From the NCBI GenBank assembly GCA_041691135.1, contig JBEPVF010000001.1, positions 1 through 64,000 on the forward strand: DNA of 64,000 nucleotides, given 5' to 3'. Positions 9,915 through 29,961 of the stretch are shown in pieces; position 1 is the first letter of the stretch, and each line of letters begins with the position of its first letter. Origin of the DNA: Candidatus Peribacteria bacterium. GTDB taxonomy: Bacteria > Patescibacteriota > Gracilibacteria > Peribacterales > Peribacteraceae. Both the position numbers and the translations under genes were made by a program. The notes beneath the pieces were generated by a model. The model searched no databases. It worked only from the letters and a program-made list of their open reading frames with translations, and was not told the DNA's origin.

Positions 9915-9915
9915 A

Positions 9916-11607: not shown

Positions 11608-11608
11608 A

Positions 11609-14296
11609 ATGAAGCTTCACTTTGACCCAAATCAGGCATATCAATTGGACGCAATCAATGCGATTGTGGACGTTTTCAGAGGGCAGCCGCTTGAAAAGGG
11701 CGACTTCGCCGTGGAAATGAAGCAGCCCGACGGCCAAATGAAAATTGAGGGTGATTTAGCTATTGGTAATTGTCTTCAGCTAGACCAAAGCACGATTGTC
11801 CAAAACTTGAATGCTATTCAGGAAAGAAATGGTGTGGAGAAAACAATGGTTCCAGTTGGATTCGTACAGCCCTTTAATGCCCCGATGAAACAGACTGCTA
11901 TCTGGAAAGAAGGTATGAATTTCTCCGTAGAGATGGAGACAGGGACAGGAAAGACGTATGTATATCTTCGCACCATTCACGAATTGCATCGCACCTATGG
12001 CTTCAGAAAATTTGTCATCGTTGTTCCCAGTGTCGCTATCAAAGAGGGTGTTATGAAGAATCTAGAAATCACCAAGGAACACTTCGGACTGCTGTTTGGG
12101 AACCCTGAAATGGATTTCTATGTGTACGACTCAAAGAAGCGCGGATTACTTCGTCAGTTCGCCACAACGAATGCCCTGCAAATCCTCGTCATCAATATTG
12201 ATTCCTTCGCCAAAGAAGACACGAATATCATCTACCAGAAAAGCGACTGGGGAGTACCTATTCGTTATGTACAGGGCGTAAGGCCGATTGTGATTGTGGA
12301 TGAACCCCAGAATATGGAAACGGACATACGTAAGAAGGCCATAGAAAATCTGCATCCCCTTTGCACTCTGCGCTACAGCGCAACCCACAAATACCATTAC
12401 AACTTGGTCTACAAGCTTGACCCTGTGAAAGCCTACGACTTGGGACTGGTGAAGAAAATTGAAGTGGATAGCGTGGTGACTGCGGATAACTTCAATGCCG
12501 CATTCGCACAACTCAAAGCTGTCACTAGCAAAAAAATGACGGTTACAGCAAAGCTGGCCATTGATGTTGCGGCAGATAGTGGTGTGAAACGAAAAGACGT
12601 TACAGTTCGAGTTGGGGCAGACCTCTACACGCTTTCAGAGAATCGTGACGTGTACCGTGACGGCTTTATCGTGGAGGAGATAGACGTGACAGGCCAGTTC
12701 ATTCGTTTCAGTAATGGCCAGCAGCTTTCCGTAGGACAGACTCAGGGGGAACTCACGGATGATGTTCAAAAGTTTCAGTTGAAGAAGGCTATCCAAAATC
12801 ATTTGGAGAAGGAACGGAAGATGGCAGGAATGGGTATTAAGGTGCTTACACTGTTCTTTATTGACCGAGTATCGAATTACCGTAGTTACGAGGCCGACAC
12901 ATTGAAGAAGGGCAAATTTGCAGTCTGGTTCGAGGAATTGTGCCGCGAGATGCTTACTCGGCCTCAATACAAAGGATTACTGCAATCCGACCTGACGGCG
13001 GTGCATAACGGCTATTTTTCCGAGGATAAGAAAGGTAACTGGAAGGATACGCGTGGTGATACTCAGGCCGACGACGACACTTACAGTTTAATTATGAGGG
13101 ACAAGGAAAAACTATTGTCACTCGATACGCCCCTGCGATTCATCTTCAGCCACTCGGCATTACGAGAAGGCTGGGATAACCCGAATGTCTTTCAAATTTG
13201 TACGCTGAACGAAAGCACTTCGGAGATGAAAAAGCGTCAGGAAATCGGACGTGGATTGCGCTTGCCTGTGAATCAGGAGGGCAACCGCATATTTGATGAG
13301 AATATCAACGTACTCACGGTAGTGGCCAACGAAAGCTACGACGATTTCGCCAGAAAGCTGCAAACCGAAATTGAGGACGACTGCGGTGTGGACTTCACTG
13401 GTCGTATCAAGAAAAAAGAAGATAAGCGTAAGGTAACGCTTCGCAAGGGCTATCAACTCGATGCAAATTTTAAAGACTTGTGGGAGAGGATTAAGCACAA
13501 AACTCGCTATAAGGTTCAGTACTCCACGGATGGCCTTGTAGAGAGTGCGGGACAAACTCTCTCAGAAATCACGGTAACGCCTCCGCGTATTCGTTCTGTG
13601 CGCGTTCAACTAGGCATGTCATCTGAAGGAATTGAAGCCAAATTACTTTCGGCTGATGAAAAATTGGTGCAAGTAGAGATTAATGCGGTTCCAGATATTC
13701 TTGGGGGCATTCAGGGTAAAACCAAACTTAGCAGAGATACGATTTTTAGAATTATTAAACGTTCGGGAAAACTCAAAGAAATCCTAAAGAATCCGCAACA
13801 ATTCATGGACAGTGCGGCAACCATCATCACAACCACCATGAAGAAACTGATGGTGGATGGAATCAAATATGAAAAGCTAGCAGGACAAGAATGGGCAATG
13901 CGTTTATTTGAAAATGAGGAATTAGAGGCATACTTGTCAGATTTATACACAGTTCAACAGCCTAAAAAAACTCTATGGGATTATCTTCAGGTGGATTCCA
14001 CCGTGGAAAGCACCTTCGCCAAAGACTTAGAAAGCCGCGAAGATGTGCAGTTCTTCATCAAGTTGCCGTGGTGGTTCAAGATTGAAACTCCCATTGGGGG
14101 CTACAATCCCGACTGGGCAATTGTCTTTGAAAACGATAAGCGCGTGTATTTTGTGGCTGAAACCAAATCATCACTTAATGCAGATGACTTGAGAGTGCAG
14201 GAGGAATTGAAAATACAATGTGGTGCGAGGCATTTCGCCACCATGGACGACGTAAAATTTCAGAAAGTGACAAAACTAAGTGAAATCATTCTCTGA
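11609..14296 (+). CDS. res: type III R-M restriction subunit (helicase-nuclease)
   Basis: VEMETGTGKTYVYL, DEPQ, LRYSATH, ALREGWDNPNVFQIC, QEIGRGLRL, YNPDW..AETK; start reset to the ATG at 11609. Confidence 0.96.
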   Translation: MKLHFDPNQAYQLDAINAIVDVFRGQPLEKGDFAVEMKQPDGQMKIEGDLAIGNCLQLDQSTIVQNLNAIQERNGVEKTMVPVGFVQPFNAPMKQTAIWKEGMNFSVEMETGTGKTYVYLRTIHELHRTYGFRKFVIVVPSVAIKEGVMKNLEITKEHFGLLFGNPEMDFYVYDSKKRGLLRQFATTNALQILVINIDSFAKEDTNIIYQKSDWGVPIRYVQGVRPIVIVDEPQNMETDIRKKAIENLHPLCTLRYSATHKYHYNLVYKLDPVKAYDLGLVKKIEVDSVVTADNFNAAFAQLKAVTSKKMTVTAKLAIDVAADSGVKRKDVTVRVGADLYTLSENRDVYRDGFIVEEIDVTGQFIRFSNGQQLSVGQTQGELTDDVQKFQLKKAIQNHLEKERKMAGMGIKVLTLFFIDRVSNYRSYEADTLKKGKFAVWFEELCREMLTRPQYKGLLQSDLTAVHNGYFSEDKKGNWKDTRGDTQADDDTYSLIMRDKEKLLSLDTPLRFIFSHSALREGWDNPNVFQICTLNESTSEMKKRQEIGRGLRLPVNQEGNRIFDENINVLTVVANESYDDFARKLQTEIEDDCGVDFTGRIKKKEDKRKVTLRKGYQLDANFKDLWERIKHKTRYKVQYSTDGLVESAGQTLSEITVTPPRIRSVRVQLGMSSEGIEAKLLSADEKLVQVEINAVPDILGGIQGKTKLSRDTIFRIIKRSGKLKEILKNPQQFMDSAATIITTTMKKLMVDGIKYEKLAGQEWAMRLFENEELEAYLSDLYTVQQPKKTLWDYLQVDSTVESTFAKDLESREDVQFFIKLPWWFKIETPIGGYNPDWAIVFENDKRVYFVAETKSSLNADDLRVQEELKIQCGARHFATMDDVKFQKVTKLSEIIL

Positions 14297-14527
14297 TTTG
14301 TAGGCATCACACAAACGCTATCGAATCCCTACAATACCCTTTACGGGATTTAAATTTCCAGGACATACATTTTACTGTGAGTACAACGTCAGGGGCGCCT
14401 CAATTGAAGCTAGGGGCATACAGGGGCATGTCCAATAGTAAGGCATAAAGCTGTGACGGGGTTTAGGGTAGTTCAGTTGTGAATTTCGCGTTTGTACACG
14501 AGGACAAGCAAGCTATTCTGGGTTGCA

Positions 14528-16051
14528 ATGTACATAACAGCGTCGATTCTTTACGATTACCTGTGCTGTCCGCATCGCGTTTGGAGAGATAGGTACGGCC
14601 CCCAAGATGAAAAAATACAAGAAACAAACCCTTTTGTTTCATTGCTTTGGGAAAGAGGCGTAAGGCATGAGAAAGAAATGGTAATGAAATTGGGTGAATT
14701 AGTGGATATTAGCAAAGGTTCAATCGAGGAACGCATCGCCCAGACGACAGAGGCCATGAAGAATGACACGCCGCTTATCTATCAGGGTGTCATCATGTAC
14801 GGCGACTTGCTGGGCATCCCTGACTTGCTGCGAAAGTTACCTGATGGTTTCTATGTACCTGTGGATATTAAATCAGGGTCAGGAATGGAAGGCGCGGACG
14901 AAGAGGTGGGAGAAGAAGGAAAACCTAAAAAACACTATGCGGTTCAACTCTGCTTGTACGTCGAAGTGCTTTGCCGTCTGGGGTTTGCAAAAGAGAAGCG
15001 CGGCATCATTTTGGACATAGACAGACAAGAGGTGGAATACATCCTCGACCAACCGCGAGGAAAAAAGTCCCCTGAGACGTGGTGGGATTTATACGAAGAT
15101 TTGAAAGAAGAAGTGAAACCGCTTCTTCAGGGGACGAAGAAAAATAAGCCCGCGATGGCTGGGTGCTGCAAGCTGTGTCCGTGGTTCAACAGTTGCAAGA
15201 AATGGTGCAAAGAATCTGATGACCTCACATCGTTGCCTGGACTTGGGCGAAGCAGAAGGGACACGATTAACGATGATTTGAAGATTGAAACCGTAACCCA
15301 GCTTATCTCTCTTGATGTCCAAACAGTGCTGGAAAGGAAAAAGAAGGAGAAAGTGTTTATGAGTGGGATAGCGGAGAAAACGCTTACCAGCTTCCTAAAA
15401 CGTGCAACGATTTTCAAAGTAACCCAGAAGCCCGTTCTGTATCAGCCTGTTACCTTTCCAGTCGTCTCAACGGAGTTGTTTTTTGACATTGAAGACGACC
15501 CGACACAGGAATTTGTCTATCTGCATGGCGTTTATGAAAGAAAAGGGAAGGAGGAGAAATTTTATTCTTTTGTGGCTAAAGACCAGACTTCAGAGGCGGA
15601 AGAAGCATCTTGGAAAGATTTTTGGAACTATATCTGGTCGCTTCCGAAGGATGATTACGCGGTGTATTACTATTCTCATCACGAAAAGACGACGTACACG
15701 CGCATGAGAAAGAAGTACCCAACTGTTATTGATGAAAACACTCTCAATGCGTTTTTTGAGAATCCCAATGTCATTGACCTGTATTCGGCAGTTGTGAGGC
15801 CATTCACCGACTGGCCGCTGTGGAGTTATTCGCTGAAAGAAATAGCACAGTATCTTGGTTTCAAATGGAGAGATGAAACCCCGTCAGGCGCACTTTCGAT
15901 TCAATGGTTTAACGATTACATGGAAACAAAGGACGAAAGTATTTTGAAAAGAATTCTTGAATACAACGAGGATGACTGCAAAGCCACAATGGTTTTGAAG
16001 GATGGTTTGGCTAAATTGGCTTTGGAAACTGTCAAAGTGCCAATAAAATGA
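14528..16051 (+). CDS. TM0106-family RecB-like nuclease with RNase H-like domain
   Basis: CPHR, GIPDLL..PVDIK, QLCLY, C..CPW...C, FFDIE, YSLK, YNEDDC. Confidence 0.88.
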   Translation: MYITASILYDYLCCPHRVWRDRYGPQDEKIQETNPFVSLLWERGVRHEKEMVMKLGELVDISKGSIEERIAQTTEAMKNDTPLIYQGVIMYGDLLGIPDLLRKLPDGFYVPVDIKSGSGMEGADEEVGEEGKPKKHYAVQLCLYVEVLCRLGFAKEKRGIILDIDRQEVEYILDQPRGKKSPETWWDLYEDLKEEVKPLLQGTKKNKPAMAGCCKLCPWFNSCKKWCKESDDLTSLPGLGRSRRDTINDDLKIETVTQLISLDVQTVLERKKKEKVFMSGIAEKTLTSFLKRATIFKVTQKPVLYQPVTFPVVSTELFFDIEDDPTQEFVYLHGVYERKGKEEKFYSFVAKDQTSEAEEASWKDFWNYIWSLPKDDYAVYYYSHHEKTTYTRMRKKYPTVIDENTLNAFFENPNVIDLYSAVVRPFTDWPLWSYSLKEIAQYLGFKWRDETPSGALSIQWFNDYMETKDESILKRILEYNEDDCKATMVLKDGLAKLALETVKVPIK

Positions 16052-16111
16052 TTTCAGAATCGCGAAATTGCTTTTGAAAAGCAGTCGAAAGACATTATTA
16101 TAAAAGTGCAA

Positions 16112-16345
16112 ATGTCCAAAACTCCTACACCAAAGACTAAATCATTTTGTGTTATTGGTGCTGTCCAATATGAGATGCTTGAAACGCACGAAAAAAACTT
16201 TCAAATTGCAAGCTGGTTCCATCGCCATTGTTCGCATTCAGAGGACAACCCCGAATTGGAACAGGTGATGCTAGATAAGACGCGACCGAATGGTTACCAC
16301 GAAGACGGCGACAAAATTTATGTCCTTTCACGTATGCCAAAATGA
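16112..16345 (+). CDS. small hypothetical protein translationally coupled to LSR-A
   Basis: ATGA overlap with the integrase start at 16342. Confidence 0.5.
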   Translation: MSKTPTPKTKSFCVIGAVQYEMLETHEKNFQIASWFHRHCSHSEDNPELEQVMLDKTRPNGYHEDGDKIYVLSRMPK

Positions 16346-18123
16346 AAGATAGCAGAATTGAGTTTCGTGCTGTGGGGTACATTAGAGAATCCACCAGAAC
16401 CCAAACTGTTGGAGGCTATCGTGCGGGTTATCAGAAAGAGAGAATTGAAGGTTATTGTAGAAAGCATGGTTTTAAACTTGTGAAAATGTTTGAGGATTCA
16501 GGGAGTGGGAAAGATGTCAGACATAGGCCTAACTTTGAGATGATGCTTGCCTATGCGAAAGCAAATGATATTCAGTTTATCGTTGTTGAAGACATCAACA
16601 GGTTTTACCGCGAGTTTAAAGATGGCATGGACTTAGAAAAAAAGCTTTACGATGAAAACGACATCATTGCAATCGACCCTGAGGATTACAACCCGCGTGA
16701 ATACAAGGAATCAGGATTCAGCCCCCAAGCGTGGCGGCAACGCGCACATCGTCGCGTGGATGCTGAGGGAGAAAGAAGGGACATAATCGAAAGAGTGACT
16801 CAGGGGTATCAAAAGAAAAAAGACGGCCAGATGTACGTTGGGCCGCTGCCTTATGCTGTTGAGTGGGTTGACCCTGATTTCCCAAAATACATCAGGTATA
16901 AAAAACATGAAGGCAAGGTGGTGCAGGAAATTTTTAACTTGTACATGACTGGAATGGGCTGCACTGCGATTGCCAAACAGCTAAACGAGAAAGGCTACGT
17001 CATCGAGGAAGGTAAAAGAGTTGAATTGACACGTAAGAGTGGCCTTCCCTATTTCAAGCGCATCACAAAAAACGTACCTTTTACGTTTGACCGTATCCGC
17101 CATATTTTAAGTAATAAAACCTACATTGGTCGCCAAAACACAGGCACTTCGCTACGTTTGTTTACACTCGATGCAAACGACGAAGAGGTCTTAATATCGC
17201 CATTAATTGATGATGATACTTTCAGTAAGGCGAGGGAACAATTAAAGATAAATCGACGTGGCAAAAACCCTAACAATAAAAATAGTAGACAGACAAACCG
17301 TGTTTATCTCTTTCAGGGCATCGTGAGACACGCCGATTGTGGTAGCCCAATGTACGGGGTTCCTGAAAAGTTACGCAACGGCGAAGTTACAAGGCGATAT
17401 CAATGTTCTGCGAGTAAACAGGGGACATGTAATGCTAGGCTGAAGTCACTACGTGCTGATGAAGTTGAATCCCAAATAATTGAGTTATTAAAAGAGATAA
17501 AATTAAAGAGTATTGGGGAAATAGAGTCTGAGTTACGGGAGATTATTAAAATTACCGCAGCCGAGTTAAGCAGGCCACAATCGTTTGAAAATCTAACTCT
17601 TGCCGACAAGGCCGAATTAAAATCTTTAAAAGACGCATTGGGTAATGCTTATGATTGGTTGCTTGCCGAACAAAAGACGGTCATGGAGGAAAGACTGCAA
17701 AAAATTGAACAGAAAGCTAAGGACAAAAGCGTTGAAATGCTTAGGTACTACGATTTCCAAGAGATGAGGCGTATGTTTGTTGACTTATCACAATCATTCA
17801 CCGACCTTCAAAATCTCGCTGCCCGTCAGGAATTACTCAGTATCTTGTTTCAGAAAGTTTTGATTGGGAAGCCGTTGCCCAAGCAACCACATGAACATGC
17901 CAAGGCATTTCACTGGATGAAAGGCGCGGTAGCCGATTATGAGGCATTCAGGGATGCAACAAAGCTAAAAACATTGTTACGACAATTCACGCCCATGCTT
18001 TTTGAGGAGATTCATGTTGGTGACGGCGATGAAGATTCACCAATTAAGAAGGTAATCTTTAAGCCCACAGGGCTATTCCTGTTGATGACTGATGGAGTTC
18101 GTAACTCTAAAAAAAAGAGTTGA
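16342..18123 (+). CDS. large serine recombinase/integrase of island A (LSR-A)
   Basis: YIREST catalytic motif, RP.FE.ML, N..YIG, HADCGSPM...YQC...C zinc ribbon, coiled coil; abuts attR-A. Confidence 0.92.
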   Translation: MKDSRIEFRAVGYIRESTRTQTVGGYRAGYQKERIEGYCRKHGFKLVKMFEDSGSGKDVRHRPNFEMMLAYAKANDIQFIVVEDINRFYREFKDGMDLEKKLYDENDIIAIDPEDYNPREYKESGFSPQAWRQRAHRRVDAEGERRDIIERVTQGYQKKKDGQMYVGPLPYAVEWVDPDFPKYIRYKKHEGKVVQEIFNLYMTGMGCTAIAKQLNEKGYVIEEGKRVELTRKSGLPYFKRITKNVPFTFDRIRHILSNKTYIGRQNTGTSLRLFTLDANDEEVLISPLIDDDTFSKAREQLKINRRGKNPNNKNSRQTNRVYLFQGIVRHADCGSPMYGVPEKLRNGEVTRRYQCSASKQGTCNARLKSLRADEVESQIIELLKEIKLKSIGEIESELREIIKITAAELSRPQSFENLTLADKAELKSLKDALGNAYDWLLAEQKTVMEERLQKIEQKAKDKSVEMLRYYDFQEMRRMFVDLSQSFTDLQNLAARQELLSILFQKVLIGKPLPKQPHEHAKAFHWMKGAVADYEAFRDATKLKTLLRQFTPMLFEEIHVGDGDEDSPIKKVIFKPTGLFLLMTDGVRNSKKKS

Positions 18124-18124
18124 G

Positions 18125-19681
18125 TCACCGTCTTTGTCGAATCAGTTTAACAACCAGCCCGGCCCACCATTCAAAACAGACAGCCTTCTTCTCAGCCTGA
18201 CGGAAAGGAGCTCTTGGCTGCCAGCTCAAGATTTTTGCTTGTACGGAATAGTTCGATGCAAAGGAATTGAGAATCGCCTGCCTGATTTTGGGCGATCCAT
18301 ATAGAAATGCTTCTCGAAGCAGATCCATGAGTTCAAAGCTGCGTATGACTTTTTCGATCCACGCTGTACCTCTATCGTGGAGCTGGTTTGTAGCAGCCTG
18401 CAATTCATCGCGCCGTGCTTTGAGCTGGGATAGCTGGACATCTACGGCATCAGCCATGCCCATCTCGACTGCCTTATCGCGCTGACGAAAGAGAGAACCT
18501 ATTTCCTGCTGCACCTTGGCGTATTCGGCTTGCAGGCTTTCTCGACGTTCAATTTCGTTCTCGCTTTTCTCCTCGTGGATTTTCAACAGTCTTTCCCTAA
18601 GGTTTCCTAAATCGCTCTGGCTCAAAGTCACCTCAGAAAGAATGCCATGCAATTGAGCCTCTACTTCGTTTTGTGAGATTATGACTCCACATTTGGTTTC
18701 TGAGTTTTTGCATTCGTAGTAAATGTACTTTCCCTTAGCTCGATATGAGCAAAGTGAGCGGCCGCAGAGCGGGCAACGAAGTACGTTTGCGTAATGGAAA
18801 AGCTCACGGAGTGTTGGAATCTTTGGACGAGCCGCATTGCTGTTTCGCCCCGCAAGGACAAGTTGCGTACGATTCCACAGGTCTTCAGGCACGATGGCTT
18901 TGTGACGCCCCTTGCTAATTTTGTTGTTGAACCGGACGCAGCCTTTGTAGATGGGGTCATGGAGGATGTTGTTAATGGCTGTGACTCCTAGGACATTGTT
19001 TCTCTTGCTCCGGAGGCCAATTCTTTTCGCTTCTTTTACCAAGTCTCGCAAGGAATAGCTGCCGCTTATAACTAGTTGAAAGAGGCGTAGGATATGCGGA
19101 GCACGCTCAGGATCCACTTCCAATACAGGAGTGCCATCGGGCAGTTTGATGTTGTTGTACCCCGGTCCCACCGGCCCCATATGTTTCCCTTCCGCAGAAC
19201 GCATTTCCATAGCTTTCAAAATACGGTCGCCTTTGTCCCTACTGTCTTTCCAGCTCATGGCGTTCTCTAGGGTGAGCATGAAGATGGTGTTGGAGTCTGC
19301 ACCTGTGTAGCGTTTCCCGTCTGTGATATCCATCGCCTGGATTCCTCCATCGACGAGGCGCTGCACAAAGGCCCCTGAATCAGCGTGGTTGCGGCTGATG
19401 CGATTGGGATGAACGACGATGATCCCTCTCACCTCTCCCTTGTCTGCCATCGTCATTATCTGATTGAACGTGGGACGACCCGGACGGTATGCGCTCTGCG
19501 ACTCTTCCATTACTTTCAAAGGATAATGAGCTGTGTCTGGCAGTGTTGCGTGATGCCCCTCGATCATTTGTCGTTGGTCTTGCAATGTATGCACCTGCTT
19601 ATCTTCTGTATCGGTTGATTTTCGACAGTACCCGATCCAGTACTGAGTGGCAGCCTGTGTTTTCTTCTTTTTCCGTGGCAT
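18125..19681 (-). CDS. large serine recombinase/integrase of island B (LSR-B), with a non-native C-terminus
   Basis: YCRKST, PNRISRN, DPIYKG, H.AIV, CPLCG...YYEC...C; the last codons read antisense through the tRNA 3' end and attR-A. Confidence 0.93.
   Translation of the reverse strand: MPRKKKKTQAATQYWIGYCRKSTDTEDKQVHTLQDQRQMIEGHHATLPDTAHYPLKVMEESQSAYRPGRPTFNQIMTMADKGEVRGIIVVHPNRISRNHADSGAFVQRLVDGGIQAMDITDGKRYTGADSNTIFMLTLENAMSWKDSRDKGDRILKAMEMRSAEGKHMGPVGPGYNNIKLPDGTPVLEVDPERAPHILRLFQLVISGSYSLRDLVKEAKRIGLRSKRNNVLGVTAINNILHDPIYKGCVRFNNKISKGRHKAIVPEDLWNRTQLVLAGRNSNAARPKIPTLRELFHYANVLRCPLCGRSLCSYRAKGKYIYYECKNSETKCGVIISQNEVEAQLHGILSEVTLSQSDLGNLRERLLKIHEEKSENEIERRESLQAEYAKVQQEIGSLFRQRDKAVEMGMADAVDVQLSQLKARRDELQAATNQLHDRGTAWIEKVIRSFELMDLLREAFLYGSPKIRQAILNSFASNYSVQAKILSWQPRAPFRQAEKKAVCFEWWAGLVVKLIRQRR
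18129..18180. other. attR of island A (CC at 18154-18155), overlapping the remnant of attL of island B
   Basis: CGTCTTTGTCGAATCAGTTT-AACAA-CC followed by the tRNA 3' strand. Confidence 0.88.
18154..18169 (+). pseudogene. 3' part of the split host tRNA-Tyr
   Basis: CCAGC-CCGGCCC-ACCA pairs with GCTGG (2294-2298) and GGGTCGG (2236-2242); it does not match the T-stem of the copy at 2449. Confidence 0.93.
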
Positions 19682-19686
19682 AGAGG

Positions 19687-19790
19687 GGAGTGGGAAGCTT
19701 GTTAATCACCTGTTATTTACCTGTTAATTCAATGCCCACAGTGGGCGCTCCAGCTTCCCACTCCGCATAGACGGCGTGGTGGAGCGCCCA
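19687..19790 (-). promoter_or_regulatory. structured leader/operator upstream of LSR-B
   Basis: Two perfect interleaved inverted repeats (13 bp and 11 bp) plus three TGTTA repeats at 11-bp period. Confidence 0.6.
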
Positions 19791-19792
19791 TT

Positions 19793-20437
19793 CTAGGCAC
19801 TTGAAACAACGTCTAAGGTCGGAAGTGGGAAGCACTGACTAGCATACAACTGTGTCGGCATGGTACGCGAGAGATACTCGGAAATCGTGCTGAATTTTGC
19901 CTCGTGATGTACCCAAGGAGCCAATGGTGTCGTGATATATGAGGGGACTAAGTACTCATGGCATTCCAAAGAACTTGCTACGGCACGAAGTGGTAATTCT
20001 TCGATGGAATCCGGCAGGTCAGGGACGACAATTTCCACTTTCATCACTGGATCCGGCTCAAACTTGTAGGCGTGAATCAGAAAGGGTCTGCCATTCCACA
20101 GGATGCCGCGTGTGACGATAGGGTGCTGACGACTATGTCTATCAACACGCCTGGCTACTTCTGCTGCCAGCTTCGTCCAGTGGATTCTTTCGGAAGGCCA
20201 GAAAGGTGAGTGCTCCCAGCCTTCTAATTCATTGGAAGCTTTACGGAGCGTGCGAGCAGTCAGTTCTTCTCTCTTGAATAACCGATATACCTGCAAGATG
20301 TCTCCTCGGTCATGAATGGCGGCCGTATTCGCATGACGTAAGCAAATATTCCCCATGGAGTGGATCTCCATGAGGTAGTCGTGAATAGCTTCACTTGCGA
20401 GGGACAGGCCGTCGTTTGGATCATGGGCTTCTTCCAC
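19793..20437 (-). CDS. uncharacterised island protein, homologous to 2885-3652
   Basis: Shared motifs HPIV, GRPFLIHAY, KVEIV, PSYITT. Confidence 0.72.
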   Translation of the reverse strand: MEEAHDPNDGLSLASEAIHDYLMEIHSMGNICLRHANTAAIHDRGDILQVYRLFKREELTARTLRKASNELEGWEHSPFWPSERIHWTKLAAEVARRVDRHSRQHPIVTRGILWNGRPFLIHAYKFEPDPVMKVEIVVPDLPDSIEELPLRAVASSLECHEYLVPSYITTPLAPWVHHEAKFSTISEYLSRTMPTQLYASQCFPLPTLDVVSSA

Positions 20438-20490
20438 GATCCTATTTCTATCCTTGGGGTAGCTGCCATGCGTTGGTCACTGTTGGCAGT

Positions 20491-21618
20491 TCAGACTAGT
20501 CGCTCCACTCCGGGGGTAGTGCATTCAAAGAGGAGATCAGGCAGATTTTTTTGCCGCTTGGCCCATCGATTCAATGCTCTAACAGCCTGATAAAGCTTCT
20601 TCCAATTGCCGAAGGGATCGAGGTTATATGAGGTAGGTCGCCATTCATTCCAGATAGTTTCACAGTCCACGATGCTGCCAACTTGTTGGCAGTGAGCGTA
20701 GAGTTTGTCGCTCAGCTTCGCGTAATCATAATTTTTAGGAAGCAAAAATTCATCATCGTCATACTTTAGGCGGAAATCTCCTAAATATCGCACCGTCATT
20801 CTTCGGCTGTTGCTCTTTGGACTAGTAGATTGAGTCGCCTCCTGCTGCGCCATAAACAGCGTCAGATCCTTGTAGACCAACTCAAAGTCGTCTTTGATGC
20901 TCTTCACAGCTGGTTTGCCGATAATAAATTGTGGTCTTTGAATGGCATCATATACAGAATCAAAAGCACGAACATGGAGCGCGAACATCGATTGATTGAG
21001 GATCATATCCAACCGATCCATGTCTTCCTCGATCTTTTGAATCAAGTCGCTTGCCTCCGGCGTAACAGTCATTTTTGGAGGCTGAAGTTCAAGGTCTATA
21101 AATATGCGTATTACCTCGTATTGAACTAGAAAGGGGAAAGACGATGTACGGGTGAACGCCTCAATTTGATAAAAATGGTCGCCAAACATTCCGCCGAATA
21201 CTTCCCATTTTTCCCGATGCACAAAGAGGTCGAGCATCTGCTGTGAAGAAAGCCACTCAGGGTCCTTATGTCCCGACCTTGCCCAATGGTTGAAATGCTT
21301 TTCTTTCGATACAATTTTTTCTCGCTCGATCAACGGGTATAGGTCTTCCAGTGATTTATGAATTCCATCGATTAAATCAGTAAATTCCGAACTGACTGCT
21401 AGACGAGGATAAAATTCAGCTCTGCGCATAAATTCTTCGTGAAGGGCAAGATTTCTCCCTAGAAACGGGTAAAACTCATATACTAAGGCATTTCCGAACT
21501 GAGTCTCATTATCAAGAGACATGACGTGATCATGTATATCACCTAGTTCCTGCCGAATCAGCGAAGGAGTGGGAAGCATATCGCCATAATGGCAGATTCC
21601 TGCCTGTCTCAGAAGCAC
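20491..21618 (-). CDS. hypothetical protein, possible C-terminal winged HTH
   Basis: 375-aa ORF; C-terminal LYQAVRALNRWAK segment after a beta-hairpin-like region. Confidence 0.6.
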   Translation of the reverse strand: MLLRQAGICHYGDMLPTPSLIRQELGDIHDHVMSLDNETQFGNALVYEFYPFLGRNLALHEEFMRRAEFYPRLAVSSEFTDLIDGIHKSLEDLYPLIEREKIVSKEKHFNHWARSGHKDPEWLSSQQMLDLFVHREKWEVFGGMFGDHFYQIEAFTRTSSFPFLVQYEVIRIFIDLELQPPKMTVTPEASDLIQKIEEDMDRLDMILNQSMFALHVRAFDSVYDAIQRPQFIIGKPAVKSIKDDFELVYKDLTLFMAQQEATQSTSPKSNSRRMTVRYLGDFRLKYDDDEFLLPKNYDYAKLSDKLYAHCQQVGSIVDCETIWNEWRPTSYNLDPFGNWKKLYQAVRALNRWAKRQKNLPDLLFECTTPGVERLV

Positions 21619-21635
21619 CGAATTTTGCCGAATTT

Positions 21636-22220
21636 CTATAACCGGCTAAATAGCGCGTCATGCATTGCAATGATCTCTTCCGGGGAGTGATTGCCCTGTG
21701 CCTTCAGGTATCTCCTATATGACCGAGTTGGCATTCCACGGTAGTATTGGCGTTTTATCTGGGGGTACAACTGATCTGAGAGCCAGATATTTTTCAAGAC
21801 ACGGAACTTTTGGTCGTACCAGCACTGTGATTGATACCAGCAGCCTGTGCAGTGCCTGCAAACGTAGTACTTGCCCCAGTTGTAGAGGATACGACAGCGT
21901 CGGCCACAACCTACTACAGGGCATTGGAACCACCAGCGCTTAGCGCCGTAATTACAGGGCGTTGTAACCATAGAAATACGGTACTTCAAGGACTCCCATT
22001 CCTCCCCATGCCGTCTGTGCCGGTAATCAAGTTCCATGTAAAAATGGTCGTCATCACTCTGATCAAGGGAGTATCGAACGGACGATTGAACTACACCGTG
22101 CCGAAGCCAATTCAGGACACCTGAATGACTATGATTGTCGAGCAATTGCCATTCTTTGAATCGCTTCATGTCGATTGAATCAAGACTATCTATTTGTGTG
22201 CTGTCGGCGTATTTAGGCAT
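21636..22220 (-). CDS. Cys-rich zinc-finger protein typical of integrative elements
   Basis: PCNYG.KRWWFQCP..GCGRR..ILY...YVCRHC...YQSQ. Confidence 0.75.
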   Translation of the reverse strand: MPKYADSTQIDSLDSIDMKRFKEWQLLDNHSHSGVLNWLRHGVVQSSVRYSLDQSDDDHFYMELDYRHRRHGEEWESLKYRISMVTTPCNYGAKRWWFQCPVVGCGRRCRILYNWGKYYVCRHCTGCWYQSQCWYDQKFRVLKNIWLSDQLYPQIKRQYYRGMPTRSYRRYLKAQGNHSPEEIIAMHDALFSRL

Positions 22221-22328
22221 GTTGGGATCTCGAAATCATTAGAGATAGTATACCTCCTTGTTCTCCCTAAATTTAAATAAGACCAAAAGTGGTGGTAGAC
22301 TTTAAGTACCTATTCCCTTACTTGTTCA

Positions 22329-22712
22329 ATGAAAATCCACAATCAATTCTGGGGCTCTACGATTGGCTTGGCAGTTGGCTGGATAGCTATCCTGGCATTT
22401 TTTGGCGGGGCCGCCAAAGGTGAGCCGAATGCTTTCCTTGAAATGGGGCTGGCTTTACTATTTGGTACATATGCCTATCGTTCGTTAAAGCGTCGTCTCT
22501 TGGGACTTAAGGCGACAACGCGTTGGAGTGTACTATTAGAATATACATCTCTGTTTATCGTAGTTTGGGTTTTCTTAGGTGGATTAGGAAATGGCAGAGG
22601 AGTTGATAGGCCATTTGAGTATTTTATCTTTCCGCTTTGGACATTCATTGCTTACGTCTTTATAGCAATTGTGGGCAGAAAGAACGCATCTCAGTTGGTT
22701 ACTATTTCCTAA
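22329..22712 (+). CDS. 4-TM membrane protein
   Basis: Four hydrophobic segments in 127 aa. Confidence 0.7.
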   Translation: MKIHNQFWGSTIGLAVGWIAILAFFGGAAKGEPNAFLEMGLALLFGTYAYRSLKRRLLGLKATTRWSVLLEYTSLFIVVWVFLGGLGNGRGVDRPFEYFIFPLWTFIAYVFIAIVGRKNASQLVTIS

Positions 22713-22716
22713 GGGC

Positions 22717-23694
22717 ATGTCACTTATATATGGAATCAAAACCCAAGATGGAGTCTATTTGGCTTCTGATACGCGCTTAACTAAGAGAACCGATTCAGGT
22801 GCTGTTACTTACGAAGATGATTTTTGCAAATTCCATACCTTCGGAAAATTCATGTACTCGGTCGTCGCAGGCGACGCAAATTTGGCAAGTTACTTGCTGC
22901 AAAAAATTCATGCATCCGATCTAATAAAGTGTGGCTATTCCGAATTTAGAAAGAAAGTCGAAGAATTTATCAGAAATGAAGTAGGGCTCTACCCGAAAGT
23001 TTCACGTGCTCCTCATGTTGTATTCATATTTGCCGGTCAAGATCCAGACAGAAAGGATGAAATGAGTATGGATAAATGGAAGGAATACGCTTTGTTCATG
23101 CAAAATGGGCAGAACATTAGTGTTCCGGTGCGTATGACTGAACCCCTAAAAGAAGCCCTCTTAAAGGCGGCTACTGAAAAAAAACAGGGCAAGATTCTTG
23201 AGCTCAATAAACCATACATAGGTTTGTTTTCTCTTGAAGTTAAGGTGTCAAAAAGCATTGAAATAACGATTGTCGATTCTGAATGGGCAAGCTACTTGAT
23301 GTTTGGTCCAAAAGGACTCACAGCTAAAGACGCACCTCCTGATTTAGTCGTAAAGCTAGACTTAGGAAAGAAAAGTCCCGGCCTTACTAAACGTGAGGTA
23401 ATTTTTCAAAATACCGCCGAATTGATCTTTTTCTTCTTCAAAATGATTCCAAAACATAAGTTAAATACAGTGGGAGGCGCCATCTTCACAGCCTACATTG
23501 GTGAATGGGGTGCACTGTTTCCTGAAGGTGAACTAGGAATCTTGCAGCCAGATGGAAGTCCTCCCCAGCCTGTCAGCTATGTCTTAGAATATGAAGGAAA
23601 ATTCTGTGTGAAAACTGGCGATAAAATTAAACCCTTACGCTTTGTGAGTTCGTTCTATCAGTCAGGTAGTCAAATGGATCTAAGCCTTATTTAA
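22717..23694 (+). CDS. Ntn-hydrolase / proteasome beta-like fold protein
   Basis: M-SLIYGI...GVYLASDTRLT N-terminus, K(F)H..., AGD, TVGG.I; start reset to the ATG at 22717. Confidence 0.65.
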   Translation: MSLIYGIKTQDGVYLASDTRLTKRTDSGAVTYEDDFCKFHTFGKFMYSVVAGDANLASYLLQKIHASDLIKCGYSEFRKKVEEFIRNEVGLYPKVSRAPHVVFIFAGQDPDRKDEMSMDKWKEYALFMQNGQNISVPVRMTEPLKEALLKAATEKKQGKILELNKPYIGLFSLEVKVSKSIEITIVDSEWASYLMFGPKGLTAKDAPPDLVVKLDLGKKSPGLTKREVIFQNTAELIFFFFKMIPKHKLNTVGGAIFTAYIGEWGALFPEGELGILQPDGSPPQPVSYVLEYEGKFCVKTGDKIKPLRFVSSFYQSGSQMDLSLI

Positions 23695-23770
23695 CTCGCC
23701 ACCACCCTATAAATTAATTGCCTCTTATCCTCATAGACTCTTCTATTTAAACAGATAGAATCAACCATAC

Positions 23771-24175
23771 ATGTTTCAAAAGGGTTTTCTTCTCTTGGCC
23801 TTCGCCACAAACATCATCCTTGGCAGCGTTTGCATGATGCCAATGGCGATGGCCGCTGAACCGCTGCATAACGACGCAAATGTTATGGGGCAGATGGTGA
23901 CCCCTATCGCTCCTATGTCCCATGCCGACTGTACCCATTGTTCACATCGCTCAGAGAAAAAAGAACAAAAGCCTTCATCGTGTACCGGACACTGTCTCTC
24001 ACAGGCAACAAATGCGAATTCGACGAATGTGGTCGCAGGATCAACTCAATTGATAGCCACTCTCCCTACTGCCTTTCCGCTTCCATGGAGCGGGAATGAA
24101 AGTGCAGTGACGCCTCTGACGATCAATACATCACCACCGCTTAATCCCAGCCATTCTGTCGTGCTGAGATTGTGA
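23771..24175 (+). CDS. secreted Cys/His/Met-rich metal-binding protein
   Basis: Signal peptide, CMMPMAM, HADCTHCSH, CTGHC; first gene of the copper cluster. Confidence 0.6.
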   Translation: MFQKGFLLLAFATNIILGSVCMMPMAMAAEPLHNDANVMGQMVTPIAPMSHADCTHCSHRSEKKEQKPSSCTGHCLSQATNANSTNVVAGSTQLIATLPTAFPLPWSGNESAVTPLTINTSPPLNPSHSVVLRL

Positions 24176-24236
24176 AACAGGAAATATTTCTGCCGAGTCA
24201 TACTCACTATTGTTTTACCTGTTTTCACTTATCACT

Positions 24237-25598
24237 ATGATCGAATCATCACATCAGCGCTGCGCATCATTCCGTATAAACGGTATGACATGTGCCAGCT
24301 GCGAGCTTCTCTTGGAACGGAAACTTAAAGCGGTTACGGGCGTCAAAGAAGTGACTATCAATCACAGGACAGGCATCGCCCGGGTGACGGCTGACACCAA
24401 TGCACTCCCAAGCTATGAGCGTATTGCCTCGGTTATCCGCAAAGCTGGCTACTCGCTTGCCGACGAAGAAGCGCCGACAGTCTCGTCTGTTGCGCAGGAT
24501 AAACGAAAATGGATGGAGATTGGCGGCTCGCTTCTCATAATCTTTGCTGTCTATAAGTTCCTGCAAGCGTTTGATCTGGTATCACTGGCGCCTTCTACCT
24601 CTGGCGCACTTTCCTTCGGCGGAATCTTGGTCATCGGACTCGTGGCAGGGACTAGCAGTTGTTTAGCGGTAGCTGGTGGTCTGCTCATTGCCATGGCAGC
24701 CAAATACAATGAAGTCCATCAGGCAGAGACCACATGGGACAAGCTCAAACCGCTCTTACATTTCAATATAGGACGGCTGGCCTCTTACTTTTTCCTCGGC
24801 GGCCTCGTGGGATTACTGGGGCAATCCATCACACTCTCAACAAAGATGACGGGGTATATGAGTATCGGTATCGCGCTGGTGATGCTGTATCTCGCCCTCA
24901 CAATCCTCCAGCTCATTCCGAAGGGTAGCTTTCCCATCCGACCGCCCAAGCGTCTCTCTCACTGGATAGCAGGACTTTCCGAGAGCAGACACCCTGCGGC
25001 ACCTTTTGCTCTCGGTGCGCTGACATTCTTCTTACCGTGTGGCTTTACGCAATCGCTTCAGCTCGTCGCGCTGGCATCGGGGAGCTTTATCACTGGGGCA
25101 CTGACGATGTTCACGTTTGCGTTGGGGACACTGCCATCACTGCTCGGCATCAGTGCCATTTCCTCAATTGTCAGGGGAAACAATTCACGGCTACTCCTTC
25201 GCTTCGCCGGTACCTTCGTATTCGTATTGGCACTCGCCAATATCAATAGCGGGTTTGCCCTCACGGGAATCAATCTTGCATCGGCTTTCAGTAGTCCGCC
25301 GCAAGCTCCCGCCGTTGTACCTGTAATTAGTGGAAACGTGCAGGAGGTATCGATGAAAGTTACGACCGCTGGCTATGAGCCGAGCAACCTCACCATTAAG
25401 GCAGGCATTCCGGTGAAGTGGATGATCGACGGCAGCCAAGCGTACGGCTGCACCAGCCAGATCGTCATTCCCGAACTCAATGTGTCACAGTCGCTATCGC
25501 AAGGCATCAACGAAGTGAATTTTACGGCACCGAATCCGGGACAACTCGCGTTCAGTTGTTCGATGGGCATGGTGCGCGGTTCGTTTACCGTTATTTAA
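24237..25598 (+). CDS. HMA + DsbD_2/TauE-like membrane domain + cupredoxin-like domain protein
   Basis: GMTCASC, SSCLAVAGG, FNIGRL, FFLPCGFTQ, F.LGT.P, FSCSMGM. Confidence 0.88.
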   Translation: MIESSHQRCASFRINGMTCASCELLLERKLKAVTGVKEVTINHRTGIARVTADTNALPSYERIASVIRKAGYSLADEEAPTVSSVAQDKRKWMEIGGSLLIIFAVYKFLQAFDLVSLAPSTSGALSFGGILVIGLVAGTSSCLAVAGGLLIAMAAKYNEVHQAETTWDKLKPLLHFNIGRLASYFFLGGLVGLLGQSITLSTKMTGYMSIGIALVMLYLALTILQLIPKGSFPIRPPKRLSHWIAGLSESRHPAAPFALGALTFFLPCGFTQSLQLVALASGSFITGALTMFTFALGTLPSLLGISAISSIVRGNNSRLLLRFAGTFVFVLALANINSGFALTGINLASAFSSPPQAPAVVPVISGNVQEVSMKVTTAGYEPSNLTIKAGIPVKWMIDGSQAYGCTSQIVIPELNVSQSLSQGINEVNFTAPNPGQLAFSCSMGMVRGSFTVI

Positions 25599-25617
25599 TT
25601 TTTTTTCTTCCTTCTGT

Positions 25618-25782
25618 ATGGGTTCTCTCAATTGGCAAGATATTCCCGCTGAGTCTCCGTCGCCGTTGGCATCTGATTCTGCACATCCACTTACGGCGAG
25701 CTCATCGAGCCCATGGTTCGCTGTCACGATGGGGCTCATGGGCTTCATCGTTGGCTATATGCTGGCAAATCTCTCTTTCTAA
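25618..25782 (+). CDS. small single-TM protein (54 aa)
   Basis: ORF read manually; fills the operon gap; WFAVTMGLMGFIVGYML. Confidence 0.45.
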   Translation: MGSLNWQDIPAESPSPLASDSAHPLTASSSSPWFAVTMGLMGFIVGYMLANLSF

Positions 25783-25799
25783 TTCTTTCGCTTCTCCCT

Positions 25800-26015
25800 A
25801 TGAATACCACCGTCTCCATACCTGGTATCCACTGCCCATCCTGTGCGGCTCTTATCAAGGATGTCAGCAGTGAATTTCCAGCAATCAAGCAAATTGATGT
25901 TGATGTAAATACTAAGAAAGTCACGCTCGACCATGATGAAAACTTCGACATGCAGCAATGGACAACTGAAATCGAAGCTCTTGATGAGAAATACAAAGTT
26001 CAATCCGCTTCCTAA
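25800..26015 (+). CDS. copZ: copper chaperone (HMA domain)
   Basis: IPGIHCPSC, 71 aa, directly before the ATPase. Confidence 0.82.
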
Positions 26016-26022
26016 TTTTACC

Positions 26023-29000
26023 ATGACCTCCCAATGCACTCTCTCCATCACCGGTATGCACTGCGCCAGTTGCAGTGCCCTCATCACTCGTAAGCTCAAG
26101 AAAACTGCTGGTGTGGAGGATGCGAACGTGAATCTCGCAACCTCAAAAGCAAGTGTTTGCTTTGATCCATCCATGGTGCACGAGCATGATCTTGTGGCGG
26201 CAGTAAAATCCGCTGGCTACGGTGCAGAGGTGCGAAGCGAGCATGACCATCACGGTGTAGAGTTAGACCGCAAACGACAAGAAGCAGAAATCACAGAATA
26301 CCGAAATAGGTTTCTTTGGGCGCTCATTTTGAGCCTGCCCTTGCTCGGCTTCATGATTCTGTCGTTCTTTCCGAGTCTGCCGTTCCATACGACTTTGATG
26401 CCGTATATGGGAATTATCTCGCTCATTCTCGCAACGCCCGTAGAGTTCTGGCTTGGCCGAGGGTATTTCAAAGGGTTCTGGTCGAGCATCCGTATGCTCT
26501 CGTTTGGGATGGATAGCCTTGTAGCTATCGGCACTCTCACGGCCTACCTCTACAGCGTCTATAACCTCGCCCGGCACGTTATCACGACTGGCACAGTTTT
26601 AGGTGAGATACCTGATCTGTATTTTGAAGTTGCCGCGCTGCTCATCACCTTTGTCCTGCTTGGAAAATGGATGGAGGCACGGGCAAAAGGACGAACGAGC
26701 GAGGCGATTCAGAAACTGATGAGTCTTCAGGCGAAAACTGCCAGAGTGCTCCGCGATGGGCAGACCGTGGATATTCCGATTGAGGAAGTGCAGATCGGCG
26801 ATACCGTACTTGTCCGTCCCGGTGAGAAAATCCCCGTCGATGGCTCTGTGCTCAAAGGGCTGACATCTATCGATGAATCAATGCTGACTGGCGAGAGTAT
26901 TCCAGTAGAGAAGAAAGAAGGTGATCGTGTGTTTGGCGCGACGATCAATGGCAATGGCTCTATTGAATTCAAAGCCGAAAGAATAGGAAGTGAAACAGCG
27001 CTTGCTCGTATTATTAAATTCGTAGAAGAAGCCCAAGGCTCCAAAGCGCCCATCCAAGACTTTGCGGATTGGGTGTCTTCATGGTTTGTCCCTGCCGTCA
27101 TCATCATTGCCATCGTCACGCTCATTGGCTGGCTCTTTGCCGGGGCTACAGTCACATTTGCTTTGCTTGCCGCCGTATCCGTCCTTGTCATTGCCTGTCC
27201 TTGTGCGCTCGGTCTTGCAACACCAACTGGCATCATGGTTGCGACCGGCAAGGGTGCTGAATATGGAATTCTTATTCGTGGCGGCGCGCCACTGGAAGCG
27301 GCAAACAAAATTAATGTCATTGTGTTCGATAAGACAGGCACGCTTACCAAGGGGAAACCCGAAGTGACCGATGCTCTCGGCCTGACTATGGATGGGATGG
27401 ACGCGTTGCGCATCGCGGCCAGCCTGGAGCAAGGCTCCGAGCACCCGCTGGCCGACTCCATTCTGAGACGCGCCAAGGAGCAGAATCTTGTCCTAAGCGA
27501 GGTCACGCAGTTTCAAGCCGTACCCGGGCGTGGTATCCAGGGCATTGTGGACGGCACAGAGTACTTCTTCGGAAATCGCAAGATGATCGAACGCCTGAAG
27601 GTGAGCATCGGAGAAAGGGAGGATTGGATCACGGCCATTGAAACGCAAGGGAAGACCGTGATGCTACTTTCCGATGCTACAAAGATCATCGGCATCGTCG
27701 CCGTGGCCGACACGATCAAAGACACCTCCAAAGAAGCGGTCAGCCAGCTCAAACACTTAGGCCTGCAGGTCTATATGATCACGGGCGATAATAAGCGAAC
27801 AGCAGAGGCTATTGCACGTCAGGCGGGCATTGAAAACATCCTTGCCGAAGTGCTGCCGGAACAAAAAGCCAGCGAGATAAAGAAGCTACAAGCCCAAGGA
27901 AAGAAAGTGGCTATGGTCGGTGACGGTATCAATGATAGCCCAGCGCTCGCGCAGGCAGAACTTGGCATTGCTATGGGCAGCGGCACGGATATTGCCATGG
28001 AGACCGGAGGCATCGTGCTTGTGCGGAATGATTTGCGCGACGTAGTGACGGCTATCCGGCTAAGCAAAGCAACAGTGAACAAAGTGAAGCAGAACCTATT
28101 CTTTGCCTTGTTCTACAACGTGATCGGTATCCCCATTGCCGCACGTCTCTTGATGCACTGGGGCATTGTGCTGCGACCAGAGCTGGCAGGGCTTGCCATG
28201 GCATTCAGCTCCGTTTCCGTTGTCACCAATTCACTCCTCCTCAAAGGTTTCCACCCGACACGTAGAAACTGGCTCTCGGATATCGCGCCATTCGTCATGA
28301 TCATCGGCTTTACGGCTGTCTTCTTTCTTTTCGCACAGATTAGCGGTGCTACACAAATGGTTCCTGCTACTAGTGAATCAGTTACGAATAGTGACCATTC
28401 GATGGTAAGCGGTGAGCATGGAATGGTCATGAAACCAGGAACACTCCATCTCACCGTACAGGAAGAACATGGAAATTCGCCTGATGACATCGCCTTCTCT
28501 ATTCATGAAGGAACCAGTGTCTTTGAAAATTATGGCATCAGTCATACACAGAAGATGCACTTCATTGTCGTACGCGACGACCTGCAATATTTCAGCCACC
28601 TGCATCCAACTATAGACAACCAAGGGATCTGGCATGCCGCTTTCACACCGAAAGCAGGTGGTACCTATTGGCTCTATGCGGACTTTGCAGATCAGCAAGG
28701 CGGCTCCTACTATCCGCGCTTTGAAAAGACCTTTGCAGGCGATAAGGGACGCTATGAAGTGGTGAAGAATTTCGCTATCTCGAAGACCGTTGACGGCTAT
28801 CTCATCAGCTACGAGCCAACTATTTCCGGCAATATTATGACATTTAAATACAGCATCCTTGATTCACATGGAACACCTGTAGCATTGGAGGATTATCTAG
28901 GAGCAAAAGGACATAGTATTTTACTTACGCAGAACGGAGACTTTATTCATACGCATACCGAAACAGATCCGCCGTCTTTCTCTACGACCGTTGCGCTAAA

Positions 29001-29076
29001 CACGTTCTACCGAATGTTCACACAGTTCCAGATTAATGGAAAAGTAGAAACAGTTGCTTTTGATTGGCAATCTTAA
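26023..29076 (+). CDS. copA: Cu(I)-translocating P1B-1 ATPase with a fused C-terminal His-rich domain
   Basis: GMHCASC, TGES, CPC, DKTGT, HP, GDGIND, YN and M..SS motifs. Confidence 0.93.
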
Positions 29077-29937: not shown

Positions 29938-29961
29938 CTCGCCTCTTCTCGTTCCAGAGGA

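Follow-up and report, generated by a model that had tools for sequence, protein, structure and literature searches.

Can a genomic island leave its host when a second island lies inside its recombination site? The question is raised by a tRNA-Tyr gene of a Candidatus Peribacteria bacterium (assembly GCA_041691135.1; 1.74 Mb in 35 contigs, 92% complete), found within the first 64 kb of the 325-kb contig JBEPVF010000001.1; these 64,000 nucleotides are referred to as the window. A preliminary description of the window had proposed that island A was inserted into the left attachment site (attL) of a copper-carrying island B, and that B could not be excised before A had left. The tRNA genes were searched with ARAGORN and scored with Rfam, and protein domains were assigned with Pfam, PHROG and NCBIfam. 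The account that we arrive at, and hold to be moderately probable as a whole, is that two islands were stacked in one tRNA-Tyr gene, B first and A second, and that their excision would be ordered. The anatomy of both islands, the families of their integrases (IntA and IntB) and their boundaries can be read directly.

ARAGORN called two tRNA-Tyr genes in the window, at 2235-2319 (tRNA#1) and 2449-2534 (tRNA#2). The former reached an Rfam score of only 35.6 bits, with broken pairs in the T-stem and the acceptor stem, and it is genuine tRNA sequence only as far as 2307. The pieces of this gene, together with the ends and integrases of the two islands, are as follows.

2235-2307, forward strand: 5' part of the host tRNA-Tyr gene (tRNA#1), through the T-loop; called by ARAGORN and equal to the intact tRNA-Tyr of relatives up to 2307
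2306-2307, forward strand: crossover dinucleotide CC of attL-A, the sole identity common to both A junctions (second CC at 18154-18155)
2308-18153, forward strand: island A; with one CC copy the insertion is 15,848 bp
2308-2332, forward strand: P' arm of island A, complementary to 18129-18153 at 20 of 25 positions
2449-2534, forward strand: tRNA#2, an intact island-borne tRNA-Tyr (ARAGORN; Rfam 62.5 bits, all standard pairs)
16342-18123, forward strand: IntA, a large serine recombinase of 593 amino acids, stop codon 18121-18123; Pfam Resolvase, Recombinase and Zn_ribbon_recom all above cut-off
18125-19681, reverse strand: IntB reading frame as present, 518 amino acids, stop codon 18125-18127; Resolvase (53 bits) and Recombinase (43.8 bits) above the Pfam cut-off
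18129-18153, forward strand: P arm of island A, kept in G184, G200 and G084; it now stands where attL-B would have its outer tRNA-side arm
18154-18169, forward strand: orphan 3' end of tRNA#1 (3' strand of the T-stem, 3' strand of the acceptor stem, CCA), 16 nt, starting with the crossover CC of A
18164-18170, forward strand: core of attL-B, CCACCA plus T, with an identical 7-mer at 29845-29851
18170-29844: island B, 11,681 bp from core to core
29758-29850, reverse strand: orphan coding piece of 30 amino acids and a stop, with no start codon, which is the P arm of attR-B; GGTTCGAGC lies at 29821-29829
29845-29851, forward strand: core of attR-B, CCACCA plus T, spanned by a 5,146-nt contig of the public run X1 (see below)

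The T-stem strand contained in 18154-18169 pairs with tRNA#1 and not with tRNA#2, and 2235-2307 and 18154-18169, once joined, reproduce the T arm and acceptor end, and with them the 3' half, of the intact tRNA-Tyr of a relative, G015. The two pieces are one tRNA-Tyr gene, split. The 5' piece is the tRNA-side arm of attL-A, and it also holds the displaced outer arm of attL-B. No further fragment of a tRNA-Tyr 3' end was found in the window beyond the three known pieces, so the crossover of B did not lie deep within the tRNA.

The neighbourhood of tRNA-Tyr was compared in eight relatives (G001, G002, G003, G004, G005, G015, G016 and G017). In five of them (G003, G005, G015, G016 and G017) an intact tRNA-Tyr comes after the homologue of the permease gene at 377-1591, island A is missing after this tRNA, and homologues of window genes resume 1.5-6 kb further on, from approximately 41-47 kb of the window depending on the relative. 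By this comparison, inserted or variable DNA takes up the window from about 2.3 to 41 kb. The flank downstream of the tRNA in G015 and G001 was searched for in the window and gave no match. The other three relatives, which belong to the same genus (G001:C21, G002:C32 and G004:C24), have tRNA-Tyr on another contig and inverted with respect to the genes downstream of it in the window and the five relatives, as if a segment of tRNA plus island had been inverted. The contigs of G002 and G004 end inside an integrase gene; directly after the CCA of tRNA-Tyr, G002 has the end of an IntB-like gene (41% identity, 115 amino acids) and G004 a nucleotide motif common to G064.

The ends of island A are a classical attP of a large serine recombinase, split at a 2-bp crossover. 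Identity between the two junctions is limited to the dinucleotide, to which the number of C's at each junction confines the crossover, and the arms are imperfect inverted repeats; among 200,000 random pairs of 25-mers from the window none reached a complementarity of 20/25. The same layout holds in G184, and the integrase-side ends of G200 and G084 agree with it. These three were the only genomes with IntA relatives at E ≤ 1e-40 among the 199 other genomes of the family. All three use the same CC position and have the arm, the CC and a tRNA-Tyr 3' fragment beside the integrase, with an intact tRNA-Tyr near the other end. In G184, which belongs to another genus, the related island occupies the same site, IntA is 84% identical, both junctions are visible, and the island copy of tRNA-Tyr is identical to the rebuilt host tRNA. 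The contig of G084 begins inside the broken tRNA, and that of G200 ends at the intact tRNA, its left junction lying beyond the contig. A-type islands break tRNA-Tyr at a fixed CC and supply a replacement tRNA-Tyr. Since tRNA#2 is the only intact tRNA-Tyr among the 50 tRNA calls of the assembly, imprecise loss of island A should be lethal. The sequence after the tRNA differs at all four A-type loci, and the insertion of these islands is independent of what follows the tRNA. In the literature, as open-access full text without supplements, no account of a tRNA-breaking island with a spare tRNA was found.

The far end of island B was located by tblastx, in which a short conserved stretch, close to the far end in two related islands, matched 29695-29850. 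Searches for inverted repeats at the right end had given chance-level matches only, the arms of B being too weakly symmetric. Of the IntB residues, 1-504 come from B itself, 505-506 (WW) from the CCACCA core and 507-518 from the tRNA remnant together with the P arm of A: the frame runs out of B, passes through 10 nt of tRNA remnant and enters the arm of A, where it meets its stop at 18125. The stops of IntA and IntB are 1 bp apart because of this reading into A's arm, and their proximity is a by-product of A's insertion. The orphan frame at the far end opens with W-W-S-E-L-Y-D-A-R-T-E-I, in which the W-W codons are the antisense of CCACCA. It is in frame with IntB, and would form its C-terminal tail (28 residues) only on the excised circle. 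By their domains, both IntA and IntB are large serine recombinases, 21% identical to each other. In the alignment a Y-x-R-x-S-T stretch is found near the N terminus of both, which we take to be the catalytic serine motif.

Relatives of IntB are common, with matches at E ≤ 1e-20 in 106 of the 200 genomes of the family. Nineteen loci were fetched for the best matches, and in 17 of them a tRNA 3' end abuts the 3' end of the integrase gene (Ala 4; Tyr, Asn, Val and His 3 each; Ile 1), while two had no tRNA, one of these being cut by a contig end. The distance from the CCA to a conserved integrase codon is constant across these loci. tRNA-Tyr is the target of the three relatives closest to IntB, which are 45-55% identical to it, and of one metagenome contig (54%). 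Metagenome contigs contained three relatives with 54-56% identity, one of them abutting tRNA-Tyr; none of the three was in a state preceding the insertion of A, and none was circular. No relative was found in viral contigs, and the ten proteins tested against PHROG gave no match except recombinases, and no phage genes.

The orphan tail peptide was found once in the window and once each in six of 12 related stretches (G140, G098, G093, G164, G084 and G013), with 13-17 of 30 residues matching the one in the window; it was not found in 16-40 kb scanned from G015, G180 and G056, nor in the short stretches of G064, G010 and G204. In all seven islands, attL and attR have in common the six terminal bases of the tRNA, namely CCACCA or, at tRNA-Asn, GAGCCA, with hardly any identity beyond them; the islands span 4.9-12.6 kb. 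The W-W codons as antisense of CCACCA, together with this shared core, imply that the integrase frame spans attP. As far as these junctions can be read, the frame of an integrated IntB-type island runs into the antisense of the tRNA, and its conserved tail is left at the far end of the island.

Partial copies of tRNA 3' ends (approximately 19-30 nt) also occur beyond attR in G140, G084 and G164, apart from the serine-integrase junctions, and G001:C21 has one of 20 nt about 95 nt past tRNA-Tyr. The fragments in G140, G084 and G164 were considered as attR and rejected, as the position of the tail peptide puts the real attR at a distance of 80 bp to about 1 kb from them. Such extra copies look like scars of earlier, different integrations.

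At the meeting point of the two islands, eight nucleotides separate the CC at 18154-18155 from the CCACCA core starting at 18164, and the crossover of A lies between the T-loop of the tRNA and the core of B. Only 18154-18163 is left of the tRNA-side arm of attL-B; everything further out is now the arm of A, and the T-loop 9-mer GGTTCGAGC is at 2297-2305, 15.8 kb from the core of attL-B. Island A is inserted inside attL-B and has removed the outer half of its tRNA-side arm. The preliminary description had located the CC at 18154-18155, CCACCAT at 18164-18170 and the 9-mer at 2297-2305, and all three positions hold, with a second CC now placed at 2306-2307. Its convergent integrase stops 1 bp apart were found as described (at 18123 for IntA and 18125 for IntB), and the removal of the tRNA-derived arm over 15.8 kb corresponds to the distance of 15,848 bp from CC to CC. 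That A is inside the attL of a bounded island B was confirmed by the second CCACCAT at 29845-29851 beside the conserved orphan piece. One public run covered the window, X1, from which contigs only were used and which is possibly the window's own source. They were compared over 11000-30999, a range that takes in the A/B junction and attR-B. A contig of 19,253 nt matches 11000-21729 without difference and spans the A/B junction, and the one of 5,146 nt matches 25299-30444 without difference and spans attR-B. These contigs support the contiguity of both places, though X1 may be the source of the window itself.

What the removal of this arm could mean for B may be judged by the published half-site model for large serine integrases. 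According to Rutherford et al. (2013, PMC3783163), the minimal attB of these enzymes is about 10 bp shorter than attP; for the LI integrase of Listeria, the zinc-ribbon (ZD) motif occupies positions 16-24 in attP vs. 11-19 in attB, and substitutions in it impair binding and integration. In the P arm of B, GGTTCGAGC ends 15 nt from the core, vs. 10 nt in the rebuilt tRNA arm. In the attB register the present arm of attL-B agrees with the 9-mer at three of nine positions, and the attP register gives no better agreement. The P-arm motif and the host T-loop agree at 8-9 of 9 positions in four of the seven islands. The T-loop is the sole feature, besides the CCA end, that is common to all targets of the IntB family, and it is what A removes.

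In the history that we propose, B was the first to integrate, with its crossover inside the six terminal bases of the tRNA (CCACCA), where its relatives recombine at other tRNAs. This would have severed the 28-residue tail of IntB, left at the far end of B. Island A, which is unrelated to B and would likewise be moved by its own large serine recombinase, would have been integrated later at the CC that starts the 3' strand of the T-stem, breaking the host tRNA, the function of which tRNA#2 of A would have taken over. The arm of A would at the same time have replaced the half-site of attL-B outward of approximately position 11, including GGTTCGAGC. This T-loop 9-mer may be the motif read by the zinc-ribbon domain of IntB, given the offset of the P-arm copy as in the LI integrase. 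By the half-site model (PMC3783163) we infer that the excision of B would be blocked while A is present: IntB would be unable to assemble on the present attL-B, and B with its copper genes would leave only after a precise excision of A, which would also rebuild the tRNA-Tyr. No IntB-like gene follows the tRNA at any of the three other A-type loci, and the nesting looks like a chance pile-up with a predictable consequence, not an evolved lock system.

Several points weigh against a block of this kind, of which two concern the activity of the islands. No excision products of A or B, and no alternative joints, were present in the X1 contigs over 11000-30999, contigs being prone to miss rare variants, and no directionality factor for either island was recognised among the Pfam, PHROG and NCBIfam matches. 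Both results could mean that the islands are fixed relics, B being immobile even without A through a missing or dead factor, and that there is no ordered excision. The near-equal depth of X1 over the two islands (20.3 for A, 17-19 for B) points the same way, and the adjoining region 29851-40882, non-syntenic and free of recombinases, indicates that material does become fixed at this site. We nevertheless consider relics unlikely. Both integrase frames are open and of full length, all four junctions keep arms typical of their families, the orphan tail of B is in frame and conserved, and the 84% identity of IntA to a copy in another genus argues for recent spread; contigs, moreover, are incapable of showing rare events.

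The other points concern the recognition of attL-B by IntB and the breadth of the observation. The Zn_ribbon_recom match of IntB is below the Pfam cut-off (21.4 vs. 25.3 bits), and a sequence search of IntB against solved structures gave no match at E ≤ 0.001. In three of the seven islands the P-arm motif matches the host T-loop at only 6/9 positions. The P-arm 9-mer also encodes the conserved A-R-T-E of the tail, which confounds its reading as a DNA motif. A scan for dyad symmetry in the rebuilt attP did not fix the centre, and numbering from the crossover is uncertain by a few bases. The att layout of B is in this sense a mixed one: the core is 6-7 nt in seven of seven islands and the 9-mer is offset by 5 bp, but its P-arm copy is coding and the dyad symmetry weak. 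Ten or eleven bases of the tRNA-side arm (18154-18163) persist beside the core, which some integrases might tolerate, and the arrangement of A inside attL-B is known from one genome only. IntB could then accept the altered arm, the tRNA bases left beside the core being sufficient, and B would be excised with A in place. The untouched core and inner half-site would favour such tolerance, as would the use of six tRNA species with differing inner arms, which suggests flexible recognition, and the coding constraint on the motif. On the other side, the T-loop, the one feature besides the CCA end that all targets have in common, is exactly what A removes, and binding and integration by the LI integrase are disrupted when bases of the outer attB motif are substituted (PMC3783163). 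We regard tolerance as less probable than relics.

The opposite order of arrival, with A first and B integrated later into the CCACCA of the orphan 3' fragment, seems very improbable to us. It may be said for it that nothing in the sequence dates either event directly, and that A-type islands insert whatever follows the tRNA, with flanks that differ at four of four loci. The orphan fragment, however, is without the T-loop half of the target, all 19 junctions of the IntB family that were inspected lie at complete tRNAs, and tRNA#2, complete with T-loop and CCACCA end, lies 15.6 kb away on island A yet is unoccupied. That B sits on the orphan fragment although tRNA#2 is complete, and that A-type islands insert regardless of the flank, together lead to B first, then A. 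This order is well argued from the logic of the junctions, and the earlier suggestion that B probably arrived first gains support from it, B-type islands appearing to need an intact 3' half of the tRNA and tRNA#2 being free. An artefact of the assembly or binning of this metagenome-assembled genome has hardly any chance of explaining the juxtaposition: 35 contigs at 92% completeness and the tendency of tRNA-linked islands to break assemblies (as in G002 and G004, whose contigs end in an integrase) could be held in its favour, but the separately built 19,253-nt contig covers 11000-21729 without difference, and every base of the junctions fits the att logic of the two families.

The closest described system is the ssrA-specific islands of Dehalococcoides with the recombinase DsiB, beside which IntB is set by description. 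DsiB is a large serine recombinase of 540 amino acids, encoded on the reverse strand, with its 3' end always overlapping attL (McMurdie et al., 2011, PMC3146451); its authors propose that full function of the enzyme may require the circle, and several islands lie in tandem at ssrA. Common to both systems, in that description, are a serine recombinase of approximately 520-540 amino acids on the reverse strand at the left edge, its 3' end over attL and its stop not fixed, and several cargo islands stacked at one tRNA-like gene with insertion near the T-loop or the 3' end. Unlike the DsiB islands as described there, the IntB type targets ordinary tRNAs (Tyr, Asn, Val, His, Ala, Ile) and not ssrA (tmRNA), the core of B is 6-7 nt vs. 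a 20-bp repeat, and there is no small recombinase DsiA, the neighbouring gene of 214 amino acids having no resolvase domain. No genes with ParB, Mom or RNA-polymerase domains were found by Pfam, PHROG or NCBIfam among the five to six genes next to IntB. A further difference from that system is the second island, A, which comes from a different integrase family and has a different crossover inside the attL of the first.

With phage serine integrases (Listeria A118/LI, Bxb1, phiC31; PMC3783163), island A has in common a 2-bp non-palindromic crossover with imperfect inverted arms, and attL and attR that share the dinucleotide only. Island B may resemble the LI integrase in a 9-bp motif that lies 5 bp further out in arms of the attP type than in those of the attB type. 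Unlike the phage enzymes in that account, the targets here are tRNA genes, the integrase gene of B spans attP, and phage genes are absent. A gene that spans its own attP and is of full length only on the excised form recalls Mx8, whose integrase gene gains a new 3' end on integration (PMC6070905), and the SSV-type archaeal integrase gene, which is split on integration (PMC7253208); those are tyrosine recombinases, whereas IntB is a serine recombinase that exchanges only some 30 C-terminal residues. Nesting with ordered excision is described for satellites of the phage-inducible chromosomal island (PICI) type embedded in a late gene of a helper prophage (PMC10111431). There, too, one element lies in a functional part of another, and the inner one must leave before the outer can complete its cycle. 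Those satellites interrupt a gene of the outer element, recur and appear adaptive, whereas here an unrelated island breaks up a recombination site, in one genome only. The arrangement also differs from tandem accretion arrays at tRNA genes, which have the same att core and leave the sites of their neighbours intact; the crossovers of A and B differ, and A lies within attL-B. In open-access full text without supplements no account was found of a serine-integrase island inside the attL of another.

Besides their integrases, the islands carry the following genes.

5219-5986, forward strand (island A): short serine recombinase of 255 amino acids; Pfam Resolvase (8.5e-32) and a partial Recombinase domain, PHROG integrase
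7977-9914, forward strand (island A): DNA methylase, Pfam N6_N4_Mtase
9916-11607, forward strand (island A): OLD-family ATPase/TOPRIM nuclease, Pfam AAA_15 and OLD-like_TOPRIM
11564-14296, forward strand (island A): type III restriction helicase-endonuclease, Pfam ResIII and RE_endonuc
19793-20437, reverse strand (island B): protein of 214 amino acids with no assigned family, adjoining IntB; relatives by tblastx
24210-25598, forward strand (island B): HMA-DsbD-cupredoxin fusion, by Pfam
25933-29076, forward strand (island B): predicted copper P-type ATPase, NCBIfam TIGR01511 at 621.5 bits vs. a cut-off of 397, HMA domain N-terminal
29064-29552, forward strand (island B): HXXEE protein, by Pfam

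The short recombinase of island A, whose catalytic domain is complete, is either a truncated integrase left by a previous insertion or a partner to IntA, as CcrA is to CcrB. Methylase and helicase-endonuclease give island A a type III restriction-modification system. The OLD-family gene is placed between the methylase and the restriction subunit of this type III-like system and overlaps the start of the restriction subunit, an arrangement of defence genes. Island A also encodes an SLH protein and an RNase-H-fold protein. The copper cargo ascribed to B in the preliminary description is borne out, as the ATPase passes the TIGR01511 cut-off. By this model the product of 25933-29076 is classed as a copper-translocating P1B-type ATPase, while it falls under the cut-off of the CopA equivalog (668.6 vs. 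1316). Its frame is 1047 amino acids long; the family models stop near residue 775, and the approximately 270 C-terminal residues are without a match. The 214-amino-acid protein adjoins the integrase in 12 of 12 related stretches, at 42-53% identity in 11 of them and at 52% over 85 amino acids in the truncated G204. Pfam, PHROG and NCBIfam gave no match for it, and it may be a partner or a directionality factor of IntB.

Outside B, the approximately 11 kb to its right (29851-40882) encode a small membrane protein, a two-component system, an HlyD/MacB-type pump, a cupredoxin, an ABC exporter and two unknown proteins. This region has no counterpart past the tRNA-Tyr of the relatives and no recombinase, and may be an older fixed island, also metal-themed. 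Direct repeats at 1-148, 1245-1392 and 36685-36832 represent paralogous MacB/FtsX permease genes (377-1591 and 35787-37016) and are not att sites.

A wider reading can be laid over both island families, which as a whole we put forward tentatively and with some doubt. The T-loop and the CCA end would serve as a generic landing pad for an entire clade of serine integrases, with the zinc-ribbon reading the universal GGTTCGA of the T-loop. The integrase gene cut at attP, giving a full-length enzyme only on the circle, could act as a built-in directionality switch. A second, unrelated integrase family would use the same tRNA 9 bp upstream and pay for its breakage with a spare tRNA copy, a copy that might also make imprecise loss of that island lethal. 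The newcomer would disarm the attL of the resident, imposing a strict order of exit on a doubly anchored block of 27.5 kb for defence and copper resistance.

The two island families behind the nesting are a more general result than this one instance of it. One is a widespread clade of serine integrases that target the ends of at least six tRNA species and have their gene across attP; it provides numerous natural attB/attP pairs that follow one simple logic, and these are of interest both for the study of integrase specificity and directionality and for their engineering. The other, a small family of islands that break the only tRNA-Tyr and yet carry a replacement, implies selection against all but precise excision. 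If the block on B is real, the locus would be a natural case of one mobile element controlling the mobility of another in cis, by editing its recombination site and not via a gene product, and it would represent one route by which accessory genes, here those for copper export, become fixed in small genomes.

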